Source: a virus
Reading direction: 5' to 3' (one strand)
UHGV virus genome: UHGV-0272092
DNA length: 37,793 bases
This document shows positions 206-35,298 of the stretch, in pieces (the first letter of the stretch is position 1; each line of letters opens with the position of its first letter). A model generated the notes under the pieces. That model was not told where the DNA came from and did not search any database. It saw nothing but the letters and a program-made list of their open reading frames with translations. Position numbers and translations under genes: made by a program.

Positions 206-344
206 GTGCGCTGCTAAGGCACTGGAGCAAATGGTCAGGATGGTACTTATTCCTGGCCTCTGTTTCAGCATGGCTTTATCTGCTGGCATTAATTTTCAGA
301 GAGGGTTGGATTAAGTGAGAAAGTTAAGCCGACTTGAAAAATAT

Positions 345-614
345 CACATGAATAAGGTTTCAATGCGCAGTCCGTCAAAGATTGTCGCCGTTACTCCTGC
401 GGCGATAGAGATCGAAAAACGCGCGATTGAAAGAGAGAAAAAAGGGCAATTCCGCATTGCCGCTCACCTTTGGCTTCAGTGTATGGATGTTGCTTCTGGT
501 GATGTTGAACGTGCAAGGATCGCGGTTCGCAGGGACCAATGTATCACAAAAGGTAACGGCCTTCGCCGTGGCGACTATAGCGGCATAGGATGTTGTGGGG
601 TGGTTTATGACTAA
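345..614 (+). CDS. PerC-like small regulatory protein (start uncertain; ORF opens at 315 with GTG)
   Basis: Segment FRIAAHLWLQCMDVASGDVERARIAVRRDQCI resembles the PerC family core as I recall it. Stop overlaps the methyltransferase start (ATGA-type coupling). Confidence 0.4.
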   Translation, partial: HMNKVSMRSPSKIVAVTPAAIEIEKRAIEREKKGQFRIAAHLWLQCMDVASGDVERARIAVRRDQCITKGNGLRRGDYSGIGCCGVVYD

Positions 615-4427: not shown

Positions 4428-4818
4428 CGTCTTTTCTCCCCGGAATTAACTCGCGTGGATTATCGGAACGGTGATAGAGCCATATACCAATACGCACAGC
4501 GACAATTGCTGACACGAATGCGCCTGCAGAGAAAACAATCCCTTTTTCAAAAGAGTCCTGCGTGATGGTAGGGATCAGGCTGGCTATGCCGATAAGAATT
4601 GATGCTGCTGGTTTGTAAAAGAGAAGGCCGCAAAGAAAGCTGAGCATCGACAGGAGCACCCGGCGACGGATGGGGTACTCTACTGCAGAGGTAACAAAAA
4701 TTACCGCCCCAGCCAAAGCCCCTAAAGCAACCTCCGGAGGGGCACCTGCAATAACCGCAGCAAGAGAACTAAAACTAAGCAACTGATTTAATTGCTCACT
4801 TGTTACTTGAGCAGACAT
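4414..4818 (-). CDS. holin-like membrane protein (3-4 TM segments, charged C-terminal tail)
   Basis: Several hydrophobic helices and C-terminal [19 protein letters not shown]; first gene of the lysis cassette. Confidence 0.5.
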   Translation of the reverse strand: MSAQVTSEQLNQLLSFSSLAAVIAGAPPEVALGALAGAVIFVTSAVEYPIRRRVLLSMLSFLCGLLFYKPAASILIGIASLIPTITQDSFEKGIVFSAGAFVSAIVAVRIGIWLYHRSDNPRELIPGRKDDGNA

Positions 4819-4878
4819 ACTTTCTCCTGTTTACTATCTATAAGCCAGTCAATTATTGATGACTAAACCCGCATAGTA

Positions 4879-4889
4879 AACCATATATG
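4879..4889 (-). promoter_or_regulatory. conserved element AACCATATATG (late-promoter-like), about 60 bp upstream of the lysis cassette
   Basis: One mismatch to AACCACATATG at 8309 and 24915, each at a similar distance upstream of a minus-strand operon start. Confidence 0.4.
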
Positions 4890-5099
4890 AATCATTATTG
4901 TTCCATATCATATATCTCAATAAAAGTACTAATGATTTTACAGAACGAGCCAGCAGAGTGGGGGCAGTTGTACAGGAACCATAGACTTAATTTTGTATTT
5001 AATAATGCTATGGTGTAATAAACCTGAACATGTATTTAAAATACGTACTGATTCATGATAGAATTCAAAGATAACTTTTCACAAACTCCGTTTTTGATA

Positions 5100-5126
5100 C
5101 CCGCAAAATATTGCGGGCTTTTTTTT
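5100..5126 (+). terminator. plus-strand intrinsic-terminator-like hairpin overlapping the tailspike stop codon
   Basis: CCCGCAA-AATA-TTGCGGG followed by C and eight T. No annotated plus-strand gene lies upstream. Confidence 0.5.
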
Positions 5127-8244: not shown

Positions 8245-8308
8245 GTTAAATCTCCAGATAGTCGCAGCACCCGTTGCGCCGCATATCTGGTTATTCTATT
8301 ACCTGGAA

Positions 8309-8319
8309 AACCACATATG
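8309..8319 (-). promoter_or_regulatory. conserved element AACCACATATG upstream of the tailspike gene
   Basis: Identical 11-mer at 24915-24925; preceded by ATTACC-N5 in both copies. Confidence 0.45.
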
Positions 8320-8348
8320 GATAGAAAGGATGTAAATACGAATAGATA

Positions 8349-8363
8349 TTACCTTTCAGGTAA
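8349..8363. promoter_or_regulatory. operator-like palindrome TTACCTTTCAGGTAA
   Basis: Perfect 15-bp palindrome, identical to the copy at 24967-24981. Confidence 0.55.
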
Positions 8364-8400: not shown

Positions 8401-8420
8401 TACTGTATAAATATACAGTT
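8401..8420. promoter_or_regulatory. LexA (SOS) box TACTGTATAAATATACAGTT
   Basis: CTGT-N8-ACAG with AT-rich centre, 18 of 20 matches to consensus TACTGTATATATATACAGTA. It occupies the spacer between a possible -35 TTGATA (8397-8402) and a weak -10. Confidence 0.7.
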
Positions 8421-8439: not shown

Positions 8440-8697
8440 ATGCAGCAGTATCACTATCCACTGGAAGACGGATTTACCGAAAGGATTCACACGCCGGGAG
8501 GCGTCAGGTCACTGGTGGAGGGATCGCACTTGATGAAATTACTCCGGGATCTCGATAAGGATGGATTTAATGTCGATGGCCCACTTGCCGAACTGACTGC
8601 ACTGATTAACTACGTCACCAGCTCACAGATGTCTATGCAGGATCTGCAAACACATCTCGACTATTGTGCCGAACAATTACGAAAACAAACCCGGTAA
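8440..8697 (+). CDS. small LexA-controlled protein (85 aa), candidate antirepressor
   Basis: ATG 8440 with RBS GGAG 8 nt upstream. Plus-strand gene embedded between minus-strand tail genes, directly downstream of the LexA box. Confidence 0.55.
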   Translation: MQQYHYPLEDGFTERIHTPGGVRSLVEGSHLMKLLRDLDKDGFNVDGPLAELTALINYVTSSQMSMQDLQTHLDYCAEQLRKQTR

Positions 8698-19778: not shown

Positions 19779-20104
19779 TCACCTCCGTTACCGTACAGAG
19801 TTTCAGCCGCTGATTTTTCTACATCCCCGGAAACAGGAGCGATCGCCATATCAGTGATCTGCAGATCGGCGCTGCGATTAACACCATCGTCAGTTTCTTT
19901 GGCAGACAGGCCTCGAATAACAGCCTTTGCAGTTATCATCACTTCTGTTCCGACGCCCTGAGGTTGCGCCTTCAGCTTATTCAATGTGTCGTTATTAAGA
20001 GTGATGCACAGCCCCCACGGGTATTCATCGCGAGTTCTGGTTTCTCCGCTCTCATCCTGGTAGCTGTCAGTGCCGGTTTTGAGGTTTACGAGTTCCATAT
20101 ACAC
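19775..20104 (-). CDS. hypothetical virion protein (109 aa)
   Basis: ORF in operon context with overlapping stop/start; start may be the internal ATG (MELVNLK). Confidence 0.4.
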   Translation of the reverse strand: MYMELVNLKTGTDSYQDESGETRTRDEYPWGLCITLNNDTLNKLKAQPQGVGTEVMITAKAVIRGLSAKETDDGVNRSADLQITDMAIAPVSGDVEKSAAETLYGNGGE

Positions 20105-21984: not shown

Positions 21985-22686
21985 TTATTTGCCATAGAGC
22001 ACTTCGGCCGCACTACGCTGGCCTTCATTACCACCGGTGACCATGCCATCTTCAGACATCGCCTTTCCGATTTTCACGAACGTTTTGACCAGATCAGGGT
22101 GATTACCCAGCCCGGTGGTGTTCAGATATTCTTTGAGTTCAGGTGTCCCGAACTGGTCAAGCGCACGCTGTGCGGCGCTAAGGTTAGAAATCAACTTGTC
22201 GCCACCGATTTCTTTGTCGGCTTTTACATCCGCAGCCCACTGCTCGGTTGTTTTCTGCCAGGCTTCTGCCTGGCGCTGCTGAACACCTGCCAGAATCTTC
22301 GGATAAGCATCAACCAGCTTTTGCGCTTGCTCGTTGGTCAGGTTTAGTTCTCGCGCCACCGGCTCGAATTCCTTCAACGCTTCTGTATCCAGCTCTACGC
22401 CTTCGGCAGCCTGAAACTCGTACTTTTCAGGCGCACCCTCTGGTTTATCGCCGTCCTTTTTTTCATCCTGCTTATCGTTTTCAGGCTTTTTGTCATCAGC
22501 AGGTTTATCGCCATCAGCAACAGGTTGTGGCTTATCACCTTCCTGTTGTGATGGATCACCAACTGGAGCAGGGTTATCACCTGCAGGCGCTGACGGTTCT
22601 GACGCAGCCGGAGCTGCTCCACCATCGACTGGTTGCTCATTGCAAAGACGGCGATACAGCAAACGCTCAAATAAATTCATGATCAC
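21985..22686 (-). CDS. putative scaffolding protein (acidic, Pro/Asp/Lys-rich N-terminal half)
   Basis: Low-complexity acidic region plus helical C-terminal half; sits between portal and major capsid. Confidence 0.5.
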   Translation of the reverse strand: MIMNLFERLLYRRLCNEQPVDGGAAPAASEPSAPAGDNPAPVGDPSQQEGDKPQPVADGDKPADDKKPENDKQDEKKDGDKPEGAPEKYEFQAAEGVELDTEALKEFEPVARELNLTNEQAQKLVDAYPKILAGVQQRQAEAWQKTTEQWAADVKADKEIGGDKLISNLSAAQRALDQFGTPELKEYLNTTGLGNHPDLVKTFVKIGKAMSEDGMVTGGNEGQRSAAEVLYGK

Positions 22687-22979
22687 TCCTGTTCACTGGC
22701 CTCTTTGGCCATCTTCAAATACTGTTCAGGGCAATGCGCCATAACGCGCTGAAACAGTTCCAGCGCCAGATTGCGTTGCCCCTCATTAAATGCCATTGCC
22801 ATAGCATCCATCGGAGAGATAGCGGAAAACACCCGGCCTTTCTCCAGCACCGACCAGACAACGCGACGCCCCTGTTCACTGCTCATGACAAAGCGAATGT
22901 CATCAATTTCACGCTGTGCCATGTCACGTTGCTTACGGGCGTTTTCTTCTTTCAGTTGATCGTCTTCGAAATCTGTCAT
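22683..22979 (-). CDS. hypothetical head-morphogenesis protein (98 aa)
   Basis: Overlapping start/stop with portal and scaffold genes. Confidence 0.4.
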   Translation of the reverse strand: MTDFEDDQLKEENARKQRDMAQREIDDIRFVMSSEQGRRVVWSVLEKGRVFSAISPMDAMAMAFNEGQRNLALELFQRVMAHCPEQYLKMAKEASEQE

Positions 22980-24655
22980 TGTGATTGCCCACCCTGACCA
23001 CTAACTGCATTCGCCATAGCTGACAAAACACTCGGATCCGAAGTTTTAGCTTCGCTTAGCGTCTTGGCACCCTGTGCCGCCGCCATCCCCATCGCCATCA
23101 TTTGTTGCTGCTGTTGTTGCTGTGCCCGTTGCTGGCGAGCCTGCTCAACCTGTTCCTGCGGAACAATGACGGTTGGAGACACTCCGGACATATCAGCGAA
23201 TGCATCGATCGCCTGATCAACGTTGAGTTTGTCGAGAGCTTCTGGTTTCGCTTGCGCAAGTTGACCAATGAAGTTAACCGTGGACGCCAGACTGGACAGG
23301 CCGATAGACTTCTGCGCCTGAGCCATGACGGAAATGTATTCGACCTTCAGGGGCATGCCTTCCATCGCGTCAGGCGGTGTCGGCAGCATGTTTTTACGCA
23401 CCATCATCGAGAAAGCGCGGTCAATGAGAGGATTAAGACATTCGTCGTTCAGACGCTCCAGAACCGGCCCCAACATCAGAAGTTTTTCTTCTTTCATTTC
23501 GATCACCGCTTCAACAGGCATCGAGCGGGTATTGATGTTCTGCAACATCATGAACAGATCGACAAAGTAGGCGCTGTTAATGATTTGACGGGTGTCCTGA
23601 ATGTCTGCCACCAAATCTGCTGTACTGGGGTTAACCAGATAAGCAGGCCTGAAACCATCCTGACCAGTAATCTGATCGATATACGTGATGTCGCCAGGAA
23701 GAAGGGAGGCACGCTGATTCTTGAGGGAAGTCGGAGCAACCATCGGCGGATTGGTGGCTTTATCAATCAACTGCGACTTGCGCTTCTGGAGAAGCTGCAA
23801 TGCCTTAACAGGTCCAAGCGCCAGCATACCCGGGCATGATGATCCATAAACATCTTCGCCGTTAACTTCCCAGCGCGGAGCCATAATTGGAAACTCATCG
23901 AATCCGGACTCACGCAACAACTTGTCGTTATCGCCACCAACCTCGTAATAAACCGATTTGAATGGCTTGTTCTTGCTATCCAGCTTCGATGTATCGCGGT
24001 CAATGTTCGGGTAAACCGAATGCATCACTTCAATCCACTTCTCGTAGGTGCCGCTTTCCCACATGCTTTTTACGGATTCGCTGACGTTATTTAGCCCGAA
24101 CTCCTGAACAAGCTGACGAACAGTCATAGAGAACTTGCGAAAACAGGTGTCCACACTGCCACGAGGTGAGTTAGCCAGGTAGTAACTGCCTATCGGGAAT
24201 GGCATTGTGCGAATGATGTCCTCGTCATCCTCCAGCACCGCCATTGCACCAGTGCTGTATGTGCCGAGGCTTCCGTATAACTGCGGAAGAGACTGGTAGA
24301 GATTCGACTTATTGAACATATCGTTCATGCGGTTCTGAACTGCCTCAAGCCACAACTTAACAGGGCCATAGTCCATCATTTCAGGATCTGGCGTAGCCAG
24401 GCGAAACCACGGACGGGCGGGGCTTGTTATGCCTGACATCATGCCGCTGGCAAGAGTGCGCGCCGCCATAGTCCCGGTCGAATCAATAATGCGTGTATTG
24501 CGTCGATCGTTACGGTTAACCTCAGAAGTCAGAAAGCGGGAACCACGCGGGTTGATGTAATCACTCAACTCGCGCCAGTGCGGCTCGAACGACTGACGCT
24601 CGCTTTCAAGTTGTGCGAACTGTTTGTTCAATCGCTCTTTAGTTGTTTCCGCCAT
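22976..24655 (-). CDS. portal protein (559 aa)
   Basis: Size, position after terminase, RBS GGAG 9 nt upstream of ATG 24655. Confidence 0.75.
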   Translation of the reverse strand: MAETTKERLNKQFAQLESERQSFEPHWRELSDYINPRGSRFLTSEVNRNDRRNTRIIDSTGTMAARTLASGMMSGITSPARPWFRLATPDPEMMDYGPVKLWLEAVQNRMNDMFNKSNLYQSLPQLYGSLGTYSTGAMAVLEDDEDIIRTMPFPIGSYYLANSPRGSVDTCFRKFSMTVRQLVQEFGLNNVSESVKSMWESGTYEKWIEVMHSVYPNIDRDTSKLDSKNKPFKSVYYEVGGDNDKLLRESGFDEFPIMAPRWEVNGEDVYGSSCPGMLALGPVKALQLLQKRKSQLIDKATNPPMVAPTSLKNQRASLLPGDITYIDQITGQDGFRPAYLVNPSTADLVADIQDTRQIINSAYFVDLFMMLQNINTRSMPVEAVIEMKEEKLLMLGPVLERLNDECLNPLIDRAFSMMVRKNMLPTPPDAMEGMPLKVEYISVMAQAQKSIGLSSLASTVNFIGQLAQAKPEALDKLNVDQAIDAFADMSGVSPTVIVPQEQVEQARQQRAQQQQQQQMMAMGMAAAQGAKTLSEAKTSDPSVLSAMANAVSGQGGQSQ

Positions 24656-24669
24656 TTCAATGACTCCGG

Positions 24670-24876
24670 TTACTGACCAAGCAGCGTTTTACCGCTGGTA
24701 TTAGCGGTTGATGTGTCGCCCTGAGAACCGGTAAGCAGCGTAGAACTACGACCAGCAGCAGCGCGACGGCGACGAGTTTCTTCGTCGCGGGCATCAACAA
24801 CGGCGGCATCCTGCTCCTGTGGTGCTGCCTGAACTTCTGGTGTTGCAGGCACTGATGGTGAGCTACCCATGCACAT
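24670..24876 (-). CDS. small protein upstream of portal (68 aa)
   Basis: Start context GGAGTCATTGATATG is near-identical to the portal start context GGAGTCATTGAAATG. Confidence 0.45.
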   Translation of the reverse strand: MCMGSSPSVPATPEVQAAPQEQDAAVVDARDEETRRRRAAAGRSSTLLTGSQGDTSTANTSGKTLLGQ

Positions 24877-24914
24877 ATCAATGACTCCGTACGCAATTAA
24901 ATTATTACCAATTT

Positions 24915-24925
24915 AACCACATATG
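24915..24925 (-). promoter_or_regulatory. conserved element AACCACATATG upstream of the head operon
   Basis: Identical to 8309-8319; preceded by ATTACC-N5. Confidence 0.45.
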
Positions 24926-24966
24926 ATTTATTTATCGTAGGTAGTTGACATTTAACGCACAAATTA

Positions 24967-24981
24967 TTACCTTTCAGGTAA
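24967..24981. promoter_or_regulatory. operator-like palindrome TTACCTTTCAGGTAA
   Basis: Identical to the copy at 8349-8363. Confidence 0.55.
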
Positions 24982-25303
24982 CCAAAGAGTTCATTCCGGT
25001 TACTAACCTGACTGGCTTGTCGTTAAATTGAACAGGTGGAGTGAGCTTTTATTTTGAGCAGTACGGCGTATGGCACATGCGCCGATAGCGGTCTGGATAC
25101 GTTTAAGGGGCACCCTCCCTTGCTCGGGCAAACGAACCAGGTAGCCGGAATGTGCAAGTCGAGCGGTTTTATTCCGCGCACGGGGATTCACCATCCCGGC
25201 GATTCGGTGTGACGCCTCGGAAGAGACGAGGGTACAACGATGAGAGCATTTATGGAGCCGCGACAAAGTGTGGCGCCTTAACAGGCTAAGTGCTCTCAGC
25301 GTT

Positions 25304-25380
25304 GTGGCATTAGCTCAGTTGGACAGAGCAACCGCCTTCTAAGCGGTTGGTCGCAGGTTCGAATCCTGCATGCCACGCCA
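25304..25380 (+). tRNA. tRNA-Arg (anticodon UCU), 77 nt including CCA
   Basis: Hand-folded cloverleaf: acceptor GTGGCAT/ATGCCAC, D-stem GCTC/GAGC, anticodon stem ACCGC/GCGGT with loop CTTCTAA, T-stem GCAGG/CCTGC with loop TTCGAAT, discriminator G, CCA. Confidence 0.85.
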
Positions 25381-25423
25381 GAATCACGCCTAAGGACCGT
25401 GATGCCAGAAGTTCCAGGTGCTT

Positions 25424-25466
25424 GGCGGTGATGGTTTCCCTTGAAGGACTATCACCGCCCTTTTTA
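25424..25466 (+). terminator. rho-independent terminator downstream of the tRNA
   Basis: Stem GGCGGTGATGG / CTATCACCGCC followed by CTTTTT. Confidence 0.65.
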
Positions 25467-25543
25467 CAGCAGGACGCCATTGCGATGACTTCATGCTGTA
25501 AACCAGTACAGCCACGGAAGGCATAACTCATTGCTTCCAGTTC

Positions 25544-25568
25544 GCCCGGTTCGTCCGGGCATTTTTTT
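25544..25568 (+). terminator. second terminator/attenuator-like hairpin immediately upstream of the RBS of the 25581 gene
   Basis: GCCCGG-TTCGT-CCGGGC followed by A and seven T, then AAGGTG RBS. Confidence 0.5.
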
Positions 25569-25580
25569 AAGGTGAAAATC

Positions 25581-25913
25581 ATGAAAGAGAAGACTGCAGC
25601 TGAGCGCTATGCCGCAGCTATCAATGCCGCGATGGCGATTGTAAACCTGCGTGAAGAGATTAAAGATCTCCTTGCAATTATCCATAACAACCTGACATGT
25701 ACAGAGTTGCTTGGCGGTCAGTACAACGGTGAGGCGGTGAAGGAGGCATTTAAAAATGCCGAGGTAGGAATAATTCCAGCAAACTATGTCAAGGCTGAAT
25801 GTGTGCTCCTAAAGGCACGAGTGAGTCTGCATGAAGATCCTGGTAATCTCGGTCGAACTGCAATGCGTTACGTGATAGACGAGTCGAATGCCAAACACAA
25901 TCTACCGAAATAA
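25581..25913 (+). CDS. hypothetical protein (110 aa), plus-strand gene between terminase and portal
   Basis: ATG 25581 with RBS AAGGTGA; track ORF opens at GTG 25572. No family recognised. Confidence 0.55.
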   Translation: MKEKTAAERYAAAINAAMAIVNLREEIKDLLAIIHNNLTCTELLGGQYNGEAVKEAFKNAEVGIIPANYVKAECVLLKARVSLHEDPGNLGRTAMRYVIDESNAKHNLPK

Positions 25914-25916
25914 CAC

Positions 25917-25928
25917 CGTGACATGTCA
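25917..25928. promoter_or_regulatory. 12-bp palindrome GTGACATGTCAC (copy 2 of 3)
   Basis: Exact repeat of 8722-8733 and 28183-28194. Confidence 0.5.
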
Positions 25929-26003
25929 CAAACAGACAGCCTATGAGCTGGCTTTGTTTTATCCTCACCAGAGGATATCAACGACATTATCCCCACCAGC
26001 GGA

Positions 26004-27479
26004 TTAAGCATAGGGATCGTAATCTGTGATGGCCTTGCCTTGCTGGTTCTGCTGACCGGGAATTCGCAGACGCTTCGACACAGGGAACGCAAACGTCAGC
26101 AGTAGCGCATCGCCTTTACCAGGAGAACGCCCAAGTCGCTCTTTGATATCTTCCTTCGGTTCGATAACGATTTTACCGTCCACTCGAACTTTGTACTCTG
26201 CTGCCGACAGGTCGTCCGCTGTTTCCTGGTCATCCAGCATGCCGCCCAGCCTCAGCCATGTCTTGCATGAATTGAACATCTCCCCACGCTTGTTGAGCAT
26301 CTGCGGGTCAGTAGACGCGCCACCGAACGGAACAAGTTGCCATGTACGACCCCATCCGTCACCGATTGACTTCAGACCGGTTCCGTAACCGAAGTCGATG
26401 AACACCGCGTCAGCCTGATACTGGTCTTCAAAGTCAGCGATACGCTTCGCCATAATCAGATCGTCGGTAGTCTTGTTGCCAGTCCACAGCACCTTACTGT
26501 GTAGCCCCTGCCGCAGGTATATCACCGCGTCATCAACGCCTGAATATGCCGGGTCAACACCGATTATCACCGGAGCATGCGCCACCTGCGCAGCGGTTAC
26601 CACCCGTTTCATTGCCTCATCAGTAAGACCGGTAGGGATAAACTGCAATTCAGATGCATCAGGGAATATGCCGCGCACACGGATTTTAACGAAGTCGCTG
26701 TCTTCCCCGTAGTCATCAACCCATTTCTGCAACTGCTGTTTGTTAGTGCCTTCCACCGTTCGGCTGTCAATCTGCGCAGTTTTCCAGCGGTGTTTATATT
26801 TGCGGAAACATTCGCGGAAACGTCCGGTATTACGCGTCGGGTTTCCGAACGCCACCCAGATAATCTCAGTGTCTTCGTCCGTTAGTGCACCCTCGGCAAC
26901 TTCCCACACCAGATCCGCAATGTTCGACGCTTCATCGAATACCACGATGATGCGTTTGCGCTCGTTGTGTAGTCCGGCGAATGCCTCAGTGTTGTGCTCA
27001 GACCAGGGGATTGCGTCAGCTCGCCACCGCTTGTCGTGTCCAGGATCATTGCTGTACATCGCGGTAGCGGTACAGGTAAACCAGTCTTTCGTGATAGCAA
27101 GGTTCGACCACTTGATAATTTCCGGCCAGGTCTTCGTTCGTAGCTGGTTGTCGGTGTTGGCGGTCACCACGACCTTACAATCCTCGCAAGTGGACATGCC
27201 CCAGTTGATCAGCATTGAGATGAATGCGGATTTACCAATACCGTGACCCGAAGCACGTGCCAGCATAAGCGGCTGATAGCGCGTCTCTGGATTCTGCAGG
27301 TGATCACGTATCTCTCGGAACGCATCAGCCTGCCACTGACGTGGGCCGGTAGCATGTGCCAGTTCAGTCCCCTCTTCCCCCCACGGGAACGCATAGAGGG
27401 CATAGCCAAGCGGATCGTGAGTGAACCCTGCAATATCCTCGATCAACTGCTCTTCAGGAGATAACGCTGTATCTGTCAC
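26004..27479 (-). CDS. terminase large subunit (491 aa)
   Basis: Size, position downstream of the small subunit with 4-nt overlap; N-terminal ATPase-like and C-terminal nuclease-like composition. Confidence 0.8.
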   Translation of the reverse strand: MTDTALSPEEQLIEDIAGFTHDPLGYALYAFPWGEEGTELAHATGPRQWQADAFREIRDHLQNPETRYQPLMLARASGHGIGKSAFISMLINWGMSTCEDCKVVVTANTDNQLRTKTWPEIIKWSNLAITKDWFTCTATAMYSNDPGHDKRWRADAIPWSEHNTEAFAGLHNERKRIIVVFDEASNIADLVWEVAEGALTDEDTEIIWVAFGNPTRNTGRFRECFRKYKHRWKTAQIDSRTVEGTNKQQLQKWVDDYGEDSDFVKIRVRGIFPDASELQFIPTGLTDEAMKRVVTAAQVAHAPVIIGVDPAYSGVDDAVIYLRQGLHSKVLWTGNKTTDDLIMAKRIADFEDQYQADAVFIDFGYGTGLKSIGDGWGRTWQLVPFGGASTDPQMLNKRGEMFNSCKTWLRLGGMLDDQETADDLSAAEYKVRVDGKIVIEPKEDIKERLGRSPGKGDALLLTFAFPVSKRLRIPGQQNQQGKAITDYDPYA

Positions 27480-28072
27480 TGATTACCATCCTGACGTTCT
27501 TTGAGTCGCTTCCTGGCTGCTGCTATGCGATCAGCAATTGTCACATTCACATTAACATCCAGACGTTCTTTGAACGCGTTGACATCAACATGCTTACCAA
27601 TCAGCTCAAGGTTCTTCACCTTGTCAGGCCATTTAATTTTTTTGAGGATTGTCTCTATCGAATCCTCGTTCATGTTCATGATGGTCGATGACAGATCAAA
27701 GCCACTAAGCGTAGTGCGCCAGATTTTCGGCCACTCACGGATTGGTTTAAGGCTCCCATCGTCGTTGAGGATGTCGATCACGTCCATCTGGTCGATCTCC
27801 ACCAGGCGCATGAGAACGTAATCAGCACTGACGCGCATTCGTTTGTTGCGCTCCTCCATCAACTCGGCAATCCGTTTTTGAATGCGTTCATCGCGCATCA
27901 TGACACTGGCTTTAACTGCCGCTGTATTTGGGGAGAATCCTGCGTTAATCGCTGCCTGAGTCTGGTTTTCAGGCGTTTTGATGTATGACTGGCAATAAGC
28001 CTCCTGCATTGCTGTTAGTGGCTTAAATTGCGTTGATTTGCGTTTATAGGTTTTAGGTTCAGCAGGCATCAT
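27476..28072 (-). CDS. terminase small subunit
   Basis: Position; start moved to MMPAEPK (ATG 28072, RBS GGTGG) because the upstream extension to 28150 contains a terminator hairpin and direct repeats. Confidence 0.65.
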   Translation of the reverse strand: MMPAEPKTYKRKSTQFKPLTAMQEAYCQSYIKTPENQTQAAINAGFSPNTAAVKASVMMRDERIQKRIAELMEERNKRMRVSADYVLMRLVEIDQMDVIDILNDDGSLKPIREWPKIWRTTLSGFDLSSTIMNMNEDSIETILKKIKWPDKVKNLELIGKHVDVNAFKERLDVNVNVTIADRIAAARKRLKERQDGNQ

Positions 28073-28081
28073 AACCACCGT

Positions 28082-28111
28082 GGTAATAGTTACCGTTGTG
28101 GTAATAGTACC
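28082..28111 (-). repeat. tandem direct repeat GGTAATAGT(T)ACC x2 directly upstream of the small terminase start
   Basis: GGTAATAGTTACC (28082-28094) and GGTAATAGTACC (28100-28111). Confidence 0.5.
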
Positions 28112-28182: not shown

Positions 28183-28194
28183 GTGACATGTCAC
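28183..28194. promoter_or_regulatory. 12-bp palindrome GTGACATGTCAC (copy 3 of 3), overlapping the stop of the 28191-28538 gene
   Basis: Exact repeat. Confidence 0.5.
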
Positions 28195-28538
28195 ACTATT
28201 AATTTCGTTTCATGCCAGCCTTTAGTCACCCAGCATTGCGAGTCACCATTACACGGGCATGAATTAACTGGAACTCTCTCGCCGCACTTACCGCAACATT
28301 TTCTGCTGATCGATTTTATACGCCCGCGCACGCGTGCATCATCCTGGCGGATCAGTAACGCGATGTACTCGGCCATTTCATAGGGATCGCGACCAGGGCG
28401 CCGGGCGGCGCAGTTCCGCGCCAGCATTTCCTGCTCCTGCTTATCCAGCACCAGTTCAATTTTGCGCTCACCGGCGGCGGACTGCCGAGCGCGCTGCGCG
28501 GCTTTGCGTTCTGCGGGGGATTTAGCCACGAATCGCAC
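28191..28538 (-). CDS. Cys-rich small protein (about 111-115 aa), candidate late-gene regulator
   Basis: C-terminal Cys cluster CCGKCG...CPCNGDSQC; last gene before the terminase-proximal terminator. Track start is GTG; a second GTG with RBS GGAG is at 28526. Confidence 0.45.
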   Translation of the reverse strand: MRFVAKSPAERKAAQRARQSAAGERKIELVLDKQEQEMLARNCAARRPGRDPYEMAEYIALLIRQDDARVRGRIKSISRKCCGKCGERVPVNSCPCNGDSQCWVTKGWHETKLIV

Positions 28539-29926: not shown

Positions 29927-30418
29927 TCACTCTCCTTTGATGCGAATGCCAGTGGTACTCATTCTCCTGATTTCCCAGAGCACACGAGGAACACCACCGT
30001 TTCCGACCGGATCGCGTTTACTCCGCAGGGCGACGCTTGATTCCGCCCAGCTTTTTCTTGGAGGAAGCTCTTTCACACGAACAAAACCAGCTGCGCGAAG
30101 AGATGCTCCTGATTCATCTGCCCGGGTGTACGTAATACAACGTTGATAACCCATAGCTTTTGCTGCCCGCCAGACAGCACCATAAAGCGCGCTGTTAGCG
30201 TTGCGTTCTCCTGTGGTACATGTGCGATTTACTTCAAGCGTTAATCCATCGTCCAAATGTCGTGCAACAGGTCGACCGGCTGTCGCCACACCTATCAATT
30301 CTCCGGCATCATTTCTCAGACCAATGCTGAATTTATGCCCCACCGGGGGTTTATTGTGTCGGTGATGTCTGGATATAAATGCCTTCGCAACACGAAGAGT
30401 AACCGGTGAAATCTGCAC
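29927..30418 (-). CDS. GNAT-like fold protein (putative N-acyltransferase), about 163 aa
   Basis: Pattern IGVATAGRP ... NANSALYGAVWRAAKAMGY ... ASLRAAGF is consistent with a GNAT-type fold. Start set at GTG 30418 (AAGGAG 7 nt upstream); track start is TTG 30457. Confidence 0.4.
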   Translation of the reverse strand: MQISPVTLRVAKAFISRHHRHNKPPVGHKFSIGLRNDAGELIGVATAGRPVARHLDDGLTLEVNRTCTTGERNANSALYGAVWRAAKAMGYQRCITYTRADESGASLRAAGFVRVKELPPRKSWAESSVALRSKRDPVGNGGVPRVLWEIRRMSTTGIRIKGE

Positions 30419-30420
30419 TC

Positions 30421-31149
30421 TCACTCTCCTTTGATACCAATGTTTACAGTCTGGCAAGCTTCTCTGAGCACCCAGTCAATAGCGTCTTTCCATGCTCCGG
30501 TTTCGACTGACGGATTTTCACGCTTAACCTGTTCATAGAAGCGCACTGCTTTAACCAGTCCTTCCGGTACTACTGGCGATGGCTGTTTAGCTTCTAAATC
30601 AGCAATTCTGTCAACCACGGCATCGACAGCATCTGAAAAGCCGAACCAGTTACTCCACTCCGGTCTGTCCCCGGTTGCTGCAAAGTACATATCAGCTAAA
30701 GCAGACTCAGCATGGTCACGCTCATTGATGAGTTGCTCTTCGCTTTTCTCCAGTTCAGCAATACGATTACTTCCATCCGAGATAACACCTTCGTAATACT
30801 CACGCTGCTCGTTGAGTTTTGATTTTGTCTCCTCAAGCTCAACACGCAGCTTCCCTACCGTTAGCGCAATATCCTCGTTCTCCTGGTCGCGGCGTTTGAT
30901 GTATTGCTGGTTTCTTTCCCGTTCATCCAGCAGTGCAAGCACGGTAGCCGGATTAGCCTTGGCAACAAAATCCCGGACTGGCTTACAATCAATCTCCGCA
31001 ATGGGTTGATACGATGTGTAGCCATGCTGTCTTGTATAACTACCGTGACGAATAACGAAAAAATCACCATTTATTTTTTTAGCCTGCCACTTATCTTCAC
31101 CGGCTTTCTCTGCCGCTTCACGCAGTGCATGATAGTTAATTTTGTTCAC
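30421..31149 (-). CDS. Ead/Ea22-like protein (242 aa)
   Basis: Coiled-coil central region and overall resemblance to Ea22-like early proteins of lambdoid phages, from memory. Confidence 0.45.
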   Translation of the reverse strand: MNKINYHALREAAEKAGEDKWQAKKINGDFFVIRHGSYTRQHGYTSYQPIAEIDCKPVRDFVAKANPATVLALLDERERNQQYIKRRDQENEDIALTVGKLRVELEETKSKLNEQREYYEGVISDGSNRIAELEKSEEQLINERDHAESALADMYFAATGDRPEWSNWFGFSDAVDAVVDRIADLEAKQPSPVVPEGLVKAVRFYEQVKRENPSVETGAWKDAIDWVLREACQTVNIGIKGE

Positions 31150-32160: not shown

Positions 32161-32237
32161 TTACCTCTAAGGTAATTGAAAACCATATAAGACACGAAAT
32201 CAATAGAGTTTAGAATATTTTGTTACCTTGTAGGTAA
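32161..32237. promoter_or_regulatory. pair of operator-like palindromes TTACCTCTAAGGTAA (32161-32175) and TTACCTTGTAGGTAA (32223-32237)
   Basis: Two perfect-armed palindromes 62 bp apart between P and the DUF1064 gene. Confidence 0.55.
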
Positions 32238-34046: not shown

Positions 34047-34124
34047 TTTTTCCGCCCCTTTTTGTTATTGATATTGACTATTTTGCACAATTGGAAAATT
34101 TGATCAACCAGATTTGGTTTTTTA

Positions 34125-34139
34125 TTACCCTTAAGGTGC
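34125..34139. promoter_or_regulatory. operator-like site TTACCCTTAAGGTGC downstream of the cro terminator
   Basis: Imperfect member of the TTACC-N5-GGTAA family. Confidence 0.4.
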
Positions 34140-34194: not shown

Positions 34195-34425
34195 TCATGA
34201 GTAGAAGAAGTATGCCAGTTCTGCTTTTGAGCGCAGCCATTGTCTTGTTTTACAGGCTTTAAAAAGCCCATTCATCAATACTTTACCTGGCATTTTGCGC
34301 TTGCCTGTTAAGTGAGTCTGGATATAGTGACTCGTCGTTCCGGCTTCCTGTGCGAAGGCTTCACGCTCATCCGGAGTAAGTGCAAGCCAGTGCTTTTTGA
34401 AATCGAAATGTCCGTTATCGCTCAT
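34195..34425 (-). CDS. Cro/CII-like HTH regulator (76 aa)
   Basis: First gene of the minus-strand early operon next to the operator cluster; helix-turn-helix-like segment AQEAGTTSHYIQTHLTG. Confidence 0.5.
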   Translation of the reverse strand: MSDNGHFDFKKHWLALTPDEREAFAQEAGTTSHYIQTHLTGKRKMPGKVLMNGLFKACKTRQWLRSKAELAYFFYS

Positions 34426-34461: not shown

Positions 34462-34523
34462 TCACCCATAAGGTAACAAAAATCAAGGATAGTTACCTAT
34501 GAGGTGCATTTACCTGTTGGGTA
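34462..34523. promoter_or_regulatory. OR-like operator cluster with three sites: TCACCCATAAGGTAA (34462-34476), TTACCTATGAGGTGC (34493-34507), TTACCTGTTGGGTAA (34509-34523)
   Basis: Three 15-bp sites in the divergent intergenic region between the Cro-like and repressor genes. Confidence 0.65.
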
Positions 34524-34579
34524 ATATTGCTTTAAATTGAATCATCTACTGATTCATATATGAGGCGATTTTCCAGAAA

Positions 34580-35164
34580 ATGAAAAGTATCCAGGACGTC
34601 CGCAGGCAAAATCTCAACGACTTGATCGACCGTGAATTCAATGGTGTTCAGACGCGGATGGCAGAAAAACTTGGAACTCAGGCAAATCTGGTAAACCGCT
34701 GGGCTCTTGGCAAGAAGGTTATCGGCGACCAGGTTGCACGAAAAATTGAAGCTGCCGCCAATAAACCCCGTAACTGGCTTGATATTGATCGTTCGCTTTC
34801 TCAGGAGGGTTTTCAGCCTGTCGGCCCGAGCGATATAGGTCAGCTGGCGGCTCACAACCTGGAACGCTGGATGAGCGAAAGCCGCGACCTTTCAACACAG
34901 GGAAAACTTCACCGCGCATCCGGCGTCGCCCAGGTGACAATCAGCCGCCTGTTAAACAATGAGGTCAGCGTTTCCATTTCCACCCTGGAGAATGTTGCAT
35001 CCGCATTCGGGCGTCACGGATATGAACTACTGATTCACCCGCACGACCCTGCGACTATCAACTATGACCGCTCACGCTACGCATTGTTACCCGAAACCGA
35101 GAAAGCAAAGATCGAAAGTTACATTGAATTTGTCATCAACCAGAACGAAAAAAGCAAACAATAA
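34580..35164 (+). CDS. prophage repressor, tandem HTH domains, no S24 peptidase domain
   Basis: Two XRE-type HTH-like segments (TRMAEKLGTQANLVNRWALGKK and ASGVAQVTISRLLNNEVSVS); no Ala-Gly / Ser-Lys autocleavage signature. Confidence 0.65.
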   Translation: MKSIQDVRRQNLNDLIDREFNGVQTRMAEKLGTQANLVNRWALGKKVIGDQVARKIEAAANKPRNWLDIDRSLSQEGFQPVGPSDIGQLAAHNLERWMSESRDLSTQGKLHRASGVAQVTISRLLNNEVSVSISTLENVASAFGRHGYELLIHPHDPATINYDRSRYALLPETEKAKIESYIEFVINQNEKSKQ

Positions 35165-35221: not shown

Positions 35222-35298
35222 TTACCTTACGGGTAATTTTTTTAACTCATATCTATTGACACCAAACCAAATAAGCATAATTATTACCCCAACGGTAA
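35222..35298 (+). promoter_or_regulatory. OL-like region: operators TTACCTTACGGGTAA (35222-35236) and TTACCCCAACGGTAA (35284-35298) flanking a sigma70-like promoter (-35 TTGACA 35256-35261)
   Basis: TTGACA followed 14-16 nt later by CATAAT/ATAATT; the second operator overlaps the start region. Confidence 0.6.

Follow-up and report, generated by a model that had tools for sequence, protein, structure and literature searches.

The DNA analyzed here is the virus genome UHGV-0272092, a stretch of 37,793 nucleotides (nt) that is referred to as the window. It contains two similar intergenic modules, one upstream of the head block and the other upstream of the tailspike gene, which the first-pass annotation of the sequence had described as duplicates of one late regulatory module. 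In the orientation of the genes, both consist of a 15-bp palindrome, a spacer, the 11-base sequence CATATGTGGTT (the box), 5 nt, and GGTAATA, with an ATG after a further 27 nt (head) or 54 nt (tailspike). The palindrome TTACCTTTCAGGTAA is exact at both 24967–24981 and 8349–8363, as had been claimed, and ATTACC-N5-AACCACATATG is exact at 24904–24925 and 8298–8319, with no other occurrence at three or fewer mismatches (0.10 expected). The spacer, previously given as 28–40 bp, measures 29 nt in the tailspike copy (8320–8348) and, at 41 nt, slightly exceeds that range in the head copy (24926–24966). The repeated module is real, but it is made up of two separate elements, a repressor operator and a conserved 11-base box.

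Comparison of positions 22000–27500 with phage records by megablast gave 98–99% identity to Escherichia phages vB_EcoP_ZX5, phiV10, and TL-2011b and ~80% identity to Salmonella phage epsilon15, the record of which runs in the reverse orientation to the window. By these identities, the window is a temperate Uetakevirus of the phiV10/epsilon15 type. The minus strand carries the late genes: terS and terL (28150–26004), the head block from 24876 downward, the tailspike gene (8244–5125), and the lysis genes from 4818 downward. Both modules are upstream of minus-strand genes, namely the tailspike gene, read from 8244 to 5125, and an open reading frame of 68 amino acids, read from 24876 to 24670. The latter is the first gene of the head block (24670–24876; phrog_831), is homologous to epsilon15 gp3, and is followed by the portal gene (22976–24655, minus strand). 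A search based on gp3 for more divergent head loci returned only identical relatives.

The Palindrome and the Repressor Rep

The palindrome belongs to a family of sites. At one mismatch or fewer, TTACC-N5-GGTAA has 11 copies in the window as compared with 0.66 expected, a number reached in none of 100 shuffles. These copies are found at the early promoters, terS, int, the head block, and the tailspike/ant region. The sequences at the head block (ATTACCTTTCAGGTAAC) and at the tailspike (ATTACCTTTCAGGTAAT) are both exact matches to (A)TTACC-N5-GGTAA(T). In the GenBank record of epsilon15 (AY150271.2), the homologous sites are annotated as protein_bind "repressor; lysogeny" and include 2931–2947, upstream of gp3, which corresponds to the head-block operator, and 19895–19911, next to the tailspike, which corresponds to the operator located between the tailspike and ant genes. 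Because of this public annotation and the homology of the system to that of Rep, the 15-bp palindrome is identified from its sequence as the operator of the prophage repressor Rep. Its presence at the early promoters, terS, and int, together with the repressor annotation, means that it is not a late-specific operator.

Rep is encoded on the plus strand (34580–35164), between a cluster of three operators and the early-left promoter. It matches the Rep protein of phage SPC32H (PDB 5d50_A) with an E value of 3.5e-42 over residues 1–190, contains an HTH_3 domain, and is 43% identical to both SPC32H Rep and epsilon15 gp38 and 78% identical to gp40 of phage Tyrion. The cluster separates rep from a cro-like gene (34462–34524) and consists of sites at 34462–34476, 34483–34497 (two mismatches), and 34510–34524. 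Two neighboring operators, starting at 28072 and 28090, lie directly upstream of terS (28072–28104), where epsilon15 has an annotated repressor site at 12–27. The int operator, ATACCTTTAAGGTAA, has one mismatch and is 43 nt upstream of the integrase start codon (2746–2760); it is kept at the homologous place in other genomes and is unannotated in epsilon15.

The whole operator layout is kept in epsilon15, SPC32H, Tyrion, BUCT711, and BUCT554, including the pairs of operators at both early promoters, which are 62 bp apart (63 bp once) in all six genomes compared. SPC32H Rep, as stated in a paper that cites the original work on it, binds DNA as a tetramer in which the two DNA-binding domains at one palindrome come from different dimers, and the constancy of the 62-bp spacing is a hint that both sites of a pair are bound by one Rep tetramer. 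Among IMG/VR and GTDB genomes, no heteroimmune relative was found that carries the box with a different operator; every locus has TTACC-N5-GGTAA.

The Box at Late and Early Units

The second element has the consensus CATATRTGGTT-N5-GGTAATA and varies hardly at all within the genus. When IMG/VR was scanned with CATATNNGGTTNNNNNGGTAATA, 104 distinct sequences were obtained, which were pooled with those of the reference genomes and the window to give 112. The head type accounts for 45 of these, 43 of which have the operator at exactly 41 nt upstream, and the tailspike type for 58, 57 of which have it 29 nt upstream; the remaining ~9 are chance hits in unrelated contexts. A third box, CATATATGGTT (4879–4889, minus strand), precedes the lysis block, which starts at 4818, and in the window it has neither an operator nor GGTAAT. 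In epsilon15, SPC32H, Tyrion, BUCT554, and several IMG/VR loci, this lysis type is CATATRTGGTT followed by TATTGTGTATGATG. Its operator is 32–33 nt upstream in most cases and is absent from 4 of 11 sequences, the window copy included. Since lysis-type boxes occur with or without an operator, the two elements are, on this sequence comparison, separable.

The head, tailspike, and lysis units are each bounded in the epsilon15 record by an annotated terminator or an oppositely oriented gene, and each therefore needs its own start. Outside the reference phages, the module is also present in prophages of Citrobacter, Kluyvera, and Pseudocitrobacter and in 517 of 5426 complete Escherichia coli genomes. 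The phage records inspected have no annotated feature for the box. The palindrome operator is already annotated; the box, with its recurrent layout of box, 5 nt, and Rep site, apparently is not. The operator family of 11 copies, the third box, and the box-like elements in early promoters described below all go beyond the first-pass annotation.

In the head copy, the box (24915–24925, minus strand) is a quasi-palindrome with the halves AAtCATAT and gTGGTT. An alignment of 10 genomes places it within a near-invariant block of 28 nt, ATATGTGGTTAAATTGGTAATAATTTAA, that ends ~20 nt before the ATG, in flanking DNA that is only 76–86% identical. The operator itself is invariant as TTACC..AA.GGTAAT; the sequence upstream of it is unconserved, and downstream there are short invariant islands, GTCAA, CTACG, and AAATAA. 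From Klebsiella phages, BLAST recovers little besides the intergenic head module. The putative Rep half-site on the gene side of the box, GGTAATAATTT (24899–24909, minus strand), includes GGTAAT, overlies the -10-like hexamers TAATAA and TAATTT, and is invariant in relatives. The distance from ATTACC of this half-site (24904) to ATTACC of the operator (24966) is 62 bp, the same register as that of the early operator pairs.

The tailspike copy of the box (8309–8319, minus strand) reads CATAT(G/A)(T/A/C)GGTT in relatives. It is followed by GGTAATAGAAT (8293–8303, minus strand), a putative Rep half-site with the -10-like hexamer TAGAAT (8298–8293), and this half-site is 50 bp from the full operator. 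The hexamer in relatives is exclusively TAGAAT, TACAAT, TAAAAT, or TAAACT, and such variation, restricted to TAnAAT, is the pattern expected of a -10 element, as far as sequence can indicate. At 8282–8319 (minus strand), the tailspike box CATATGTGGTT also has a near-perfect inverted copy, AACCAGATATG (8292–8282), 16 nt downstream, which would put GGTAATAGAAT in a loop; this copy occurs in the E. coli lineage and is not conserved in epsilon15 or BUCT711. Two known types of site were considered for the box and rejected. For a sigma-54 promoter (TGGCAC-N5-TTGC), the second G of GG should be 11 nt from the G of GC, but the relevant bases of TGGTT-N5-GGTAA are 9–10 nt apart, and the -12 element reads GT instead of GC. 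The box does not match the consensus of an integration host factor (IHF) site, WATCAANNNNTTR, and the IHF sites of epsilon15 adjoin operators and are off the box; the one at the epsilon15 tailspike is not conserved in the window.

Box-like elements also occur between the paired operators of the early promoters. The cassette before the RuvC-like gene (32161–32237, minus strand) consists of operator 1 (32223–32237), TTGATT, the box-like sequence CTTATATGGTT (32181–32191), 5 nt, and operator 2 (32161–32175). The box-like 11-mer in this spacer is exactly 5 nt from operator 2 in all six genomes (CATTTGTGGTT in epsilon15). The early-left cassette (35222–35298, plus strand) has operator 1 (35222–35236), TTGACA (35256–35261), a degenerate box, and operator 2 (35284–35298); Tyrion and BUCT554 have a box-like element in the same register at this promoter. 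Of 170 operator flanks compared with the box at exactly this 5-nt offset, 11 agree with it in at least 7 of 10 positions (0.6 expected) and 8 in at least 8 (0.08 expected). The order in an early cassette is operator 1, 19 nt, the -35 hexamer, 6 nt, the box, 5 nt, and operator 2. Operator 1 and the box are thus separated by 31 nt in early cassettes as compared with 29 nt at the tailspike and 32–33 nt at the lysis unit, and the separation at the head is ten nt longer. By sequence, the late cassettes look like early ones that lack the -35 hexamer and keep only the half-operator GGTAAT after the box. A further element downstream of the cro-like gene (34109–34139, plus strand) is composed of CAGATTTGGTT, tttt, and ATTACCCTTAAGGTGC, a box-like element 5 nt from an operator-like site, with better copies at the homologous place in Tyrion and BUCT711; it may represent another regulated promoter or act as a roadblock.

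Promoter Geometry and Competing Explanations

Scans of the head and tailspike regions with the sigma-70 consensus listed no promoter, and no TTGACA-like hexamer is present at the expected distance upstream of the -10 candidates of these two units. The candidates are TAGAAT for the tailspike, TAATTT or TAATAA for the head, and TATGAT for the lysis unit. If TAGAAT and TAATTT are the -10 elements, the box would be at about -33 to -23 and the operators would be near -70 (tailspike) and -82 (head). We favor, with some reserve, the reading that each module is a Rep-controlled promoter-operator cassette built from two independent elements. In a lysogen, Rep bound to its operators would silence the head block, the tailspike/ant region, the early promoters, terS, and int. 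The box, the 5 nt, and GGTAATA would form the core of a late promoter or a 5' leader, in which the box would take the place of the -35 hexamer and would probably be the site of a second DNA-binding factor, and the GGTAAT beside it would be a Rep half-site overlapping the -10. Because the late units have no -35 hexamer, they probably need the box-binding factor. Inactivation of Rep by Ant in the SOS response would let the late units fire, and dependence on the box-binding factor would delay them relative to the early genes. We infer the promoter positions, the activator dependence, and the role of the half-site.

Several observations weigh against this reading. The box is not late-specific, being represented in the early promoter spacers. 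The distance from GGTT of the box to the -10 candidate is 10 nt in the head and tailspike copies but 7 nt in the lysis copy, and an operator centered near -70 or -82 would be unusual for a simple repressor. In addition, the leader RNA of the lysis unit is predicted to fold into a long, very stable hairpin that extends from GGTT of the box almost to the ribosome-binding site; its epsilon15-type form, which contains six G-U pairs, has a predicted energy of -35.1 kcal/mol and a z value of -5.8, and an RNaseIII site is marked there in the epsilon15 record (24755–24817). The window lysis copy (4829–4881, minus strand) has a different sequence and a hairpin with the same ends. That the hairpins start inside the box suggests that the box is transcribed, with the start at or upstream of it. 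No transcript maps of these phages were found in the literature.

The remaining difficulties concern the factor itself. Fifteen proteins were scanned for known activator families, and none of them was recognized as a relative of Lpa, MotA, C/Mor, or Ogr; no activator was identified. The last early-right gene (28191–28538, minus strand) encodes a gp49-like protein of 112–115 amino acids (115 in the window) that matches phrog_536, "transcriptional regulator." It has a basic N terminus and a Cys-rich C-terminal part with the motif CGKCG..PV.SCPC..D..CW...GWH, and its sequence is possibly ribbon-helix-helix-like. The AlphaFold2 model of this protein is of low confidence, with a predicted local distance difference test score (pLDDT) of 66, and a Foldseek search with it against the PDB returned nothing below E = 4.6. 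The protein is 78–99% conserved in very many Enterobacteriaceae prophages, where it is annotated only as hypothetical. As the late activator it was set aside, since homologues in N15, phiKO2, and a P2-like Yersinia phage show that it is not specific to box-carrying phages; moreover, this Yersinia phage has a second, separately annotated transcriptional regulator behind its late genes, at the ogr position of P2, which, as judged by that position, is presumably Ogr. A PerC-family protein (PF06069, 30 bits) is encoded in the early-left operon (315–614, plus strand) and is conserved in all six Uetakevirus genomes compared. The link to PerC was not borne out, because the PerC-activated LEE1/ler promoter of E. 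coli O157:H7 does not contain the box above chance. A further candidate is the cro-like protein of 76 amino acids (34195–34425, minus strand).

The hairpins are better accommodated by a different placement of the start, within the box or immediately upstream of it, at the purine of box position 6. A weak A/T-rich hexamer, the last base of which is 1 nt away from the box, would serve as the -10, and the operator would overlap the -35/UP region. RUGGUU and the hairpin after it would then be an RNA element of the 5' leader with a role in stability, RNase III processing, or antitermination. This is possible, although we do not think it probable. It agrees with the lysis hairpin starting at GGTT, its z value, G-U pairs, and annotated RNaseIII site, with the retention of that hairpin in the window copy despite its different sequence, and with a 15-bp imperfect hairpin in the head leader that has one compensatory change. 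It also puts the operator at a more ordinary position for a repressor, centered at about -42 (tailspike), -45 (lysis), or -54 (head). The class-fixed spacing between operator and box is consistent with an operator that belongs to the promoter, and hexamers such as TATGAT, AATGAT, TTTAAT, and TATCAT do end 1 nt before the box. Most of the hexamers at that place, however, have no A at -11 (TTCTAT, TTCAAT, and AATAAA), and a -35 is missing here as well. The covariation in the head hairpin is not above controls (81 of 500 shuffles reached its score), and no consensus structure is supported for the tailspike 5' untranslated region. This placement also offers no explanation for the strict conservation of GGTAATA and TAnAAT.

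Alternatively, no separate box-binding protein may exist, and the box and GGTAAT may be auxiliary contacts of a Rep tetramer that bridges the operator and a half-site, or an ACC-N6-GGT quasi-operator, 50–62 bp away, thereby looping the DNA and occluding the late promoter. GGTAAT is indeed a half-operator, the head half-site is at 62 bp in the register of the early pairs in six genomes, box-like elements are found exactly 5 nt from full operators far above chance, and ACC-N6-GGT of the box resembles ACC-N5-GGT of the operator with one base added at the center; the tetramer of SPC32H Rep, as described in the paper mentioned above, with domains from different dimers at one palindrome, would suit such bridging. 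We nevertheless consider this unlikely because the spacings of 50 bp at the tailspike and 53 bp at the lysis unit do not share a helical phase with 62 bp, GGTAAT is missing after the box in the lysis class, 4 of the 11 sequences of that class do not have an operator at all, and the conserved CATAT has no counterpart in the operator. A simpler scheme, in which weak constitutive sigma-70 promoters are gated by Rep alone and the box is a spacer, an UP-like geometry, or a mark of descent from early cassettes, would account for the likeness of the early and late layouts (operator 1, ~30 nt, box, 5 nt, and operator or half-operator) and for TTGCAT-16 nt-TATTGT around the epsilon15 lysis box. It seems quite improbable to us, given that spacer DNA is not normally invariant across genera, that the head and tailspike copies lack a -35-like hexamer, and that all gene classes would fire together, which leaves late timing unexplained. 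The original proposal of one late-specific module (ATTACC, AACCACATATG, and the palindrome) under one late regulator can hardly be maintained. Its elements do co-occur at fixed spacing at two late operon starts, and the part of it that posits shared, specific control stands, in that the elements are far above chance and have fixed spacing in every relative examined. The late part and the idea of a single unit do not survive, because the palindrome is an annotated repressor site that is also present at early promoters, terS, and int, the spacing differs by class (41, 29, and 32–33 nt), the box occurs without the palindrome, and the box is not strictly late.

Neighboring Features and Related Systems

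The head operator probably serves a second promoter as well. On the plus strand, TTGACA (24945–24950), 17 nt, and TACCTT (24968–24973) form a divergent sigma-70-like promoter (24945–24973) toward tRNA-Arg, the putative -10 of which is inside the operator. Every aligned genome keeps TTGAC and the 17-nt spacing unchanged; the consensus scan missed this promoter because its -10 matches at only three of six positions. It faces a structured leader of ~320 nt and then tRNA-Arg(UCU) (25304–25380), which was the only match in an Rfam scan. Terminator-like hairpins are present in the same plus-strand region at 25424–25459 and 25544–25560. In epsilon15, the tRNA is absent, and part of the leader is kept with an annotated RNaseIII site.

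Divergent from the tailspike gene, a near-consensus LexA box, TACTGTATAAATATACAGT (8401–8419, plus strand), precedes the ant gene (8440–8697, plus strand), the product of which has 85 amino acids and is 88% identical to SPC32H Ant, annotated as "ant: anti-repressor protein." The LexA box and ant are the known SOS-controlled antirepressor switch. The proposed ant promoter is TGGATA-17 nt-TACTGT; the LexA box would cover its -10, and the tailspike operator would be ~57 bp upstream of the putative start. A conserved sequence, TGCTGGATAG, is situated between the LexA box and the tailspike operator and may provide the -35 region of this promoter. On the other side of the tailspike gene, a hairpin, GCCCGCAATATTTTGCGGGT (5095–5125), has its T-run on the plus strand and would therefore mainly stop transcription in the opposite direction; it may be what remains of an O-antigen-modification gene, since lost, that separated the tailspike gene from the lysis genes. 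At 29927–30457 (minus strand), the product matches a PHROG family with the description "Mom-like DNA modification protein."

The cassettes belong to a known kind of system, the phage operator-promoter cassettes. The closest is the Rep/Ant switch of SPC32H and epsilon15, with which the window shares the Rep and Ant homologues, the LexA box before ant, and ATTACC-N5-GGTAAT sites at the positions annotated as repressor sites in epsilon15, those at gp3 and the tailspike included. It differs in that its Rep is only 43% identical to SPC32H Rep and its lysis block has no operator. Induction of SPC32H reportedly proceeds via the antirepressor and not via RecA-dependent cleavage. As with CI and Cro at OL and OR of lambda, multiple palindromic operators are found at sigma-70 early promoters, with a three-site cluster between the repressor and cro-like genes. 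Unlike those of lambda, the operators of the window are also at structural, lysis, terminase, and integrase units, and pairs 62 bp apart surround a promoter.

The MotA box of T4 is at -30. Among other late activators, the sites of P1 Lpa are centered at -22, those of Mu C at -30 to -55, and those of P2 Ogr at -55 (PMC3152322). If their -10 candidates are correct, the late units of the window would resemble the late promoters of P1, T4, Mu, and P2, in which a -10 hexamer is used in the absence of a -35 and a conserved element, partly palindromic in the window, recurs at a set distance from unit to unit; they differ in that the box is also in early spacers and that its copies are each joined to an operator or a half-site of the repressor. 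The p4 protein of phi29, which represses early and activates late promoters by position, binds at -58 to -104 (PMC3152322). The box may be placed in an analogous way, in early spacers on the one hand and in place of the -35 at late units on the other; the likeness is purely one of analogy, there being no p4 homologue and a different geometry. By such a scheme, the box would be the site of a phage protein that switches from early to late purely by position, which we regard as a speculative and rather doubtful proposal. Bound in an early spacer, 5 bp from operator 2, the protein would shut the promoter; bound at the head, tailspike, and lysis units, where the box replaces the -35, it would recruit RNA polymerase; and, with every copy paired with a Rep operator or half-site, Rep and this protein would together directly set the state of each unit. 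The cro-like, gp49-like, and PerC-family proteins are the candidates for it.

Prophages of this type are present in about one-tenth of complete E. coli genomes and also in Salmonella, Klebsiella, Enterobacter, and Citrobacter, and they carry O-antigen-modifying genes; phiV10 and SPC32H are said to have been engineered as reporter phages. To our knowledge, the means by which phages of this type switch on their late genes has not been described. The box at the late units, coupled as it is to a repressor site, is a concrete target that can be mutated to find the late regulator, and direct control of structural and lysis genes by Rep, if true, would differ from the scheme of lambda.

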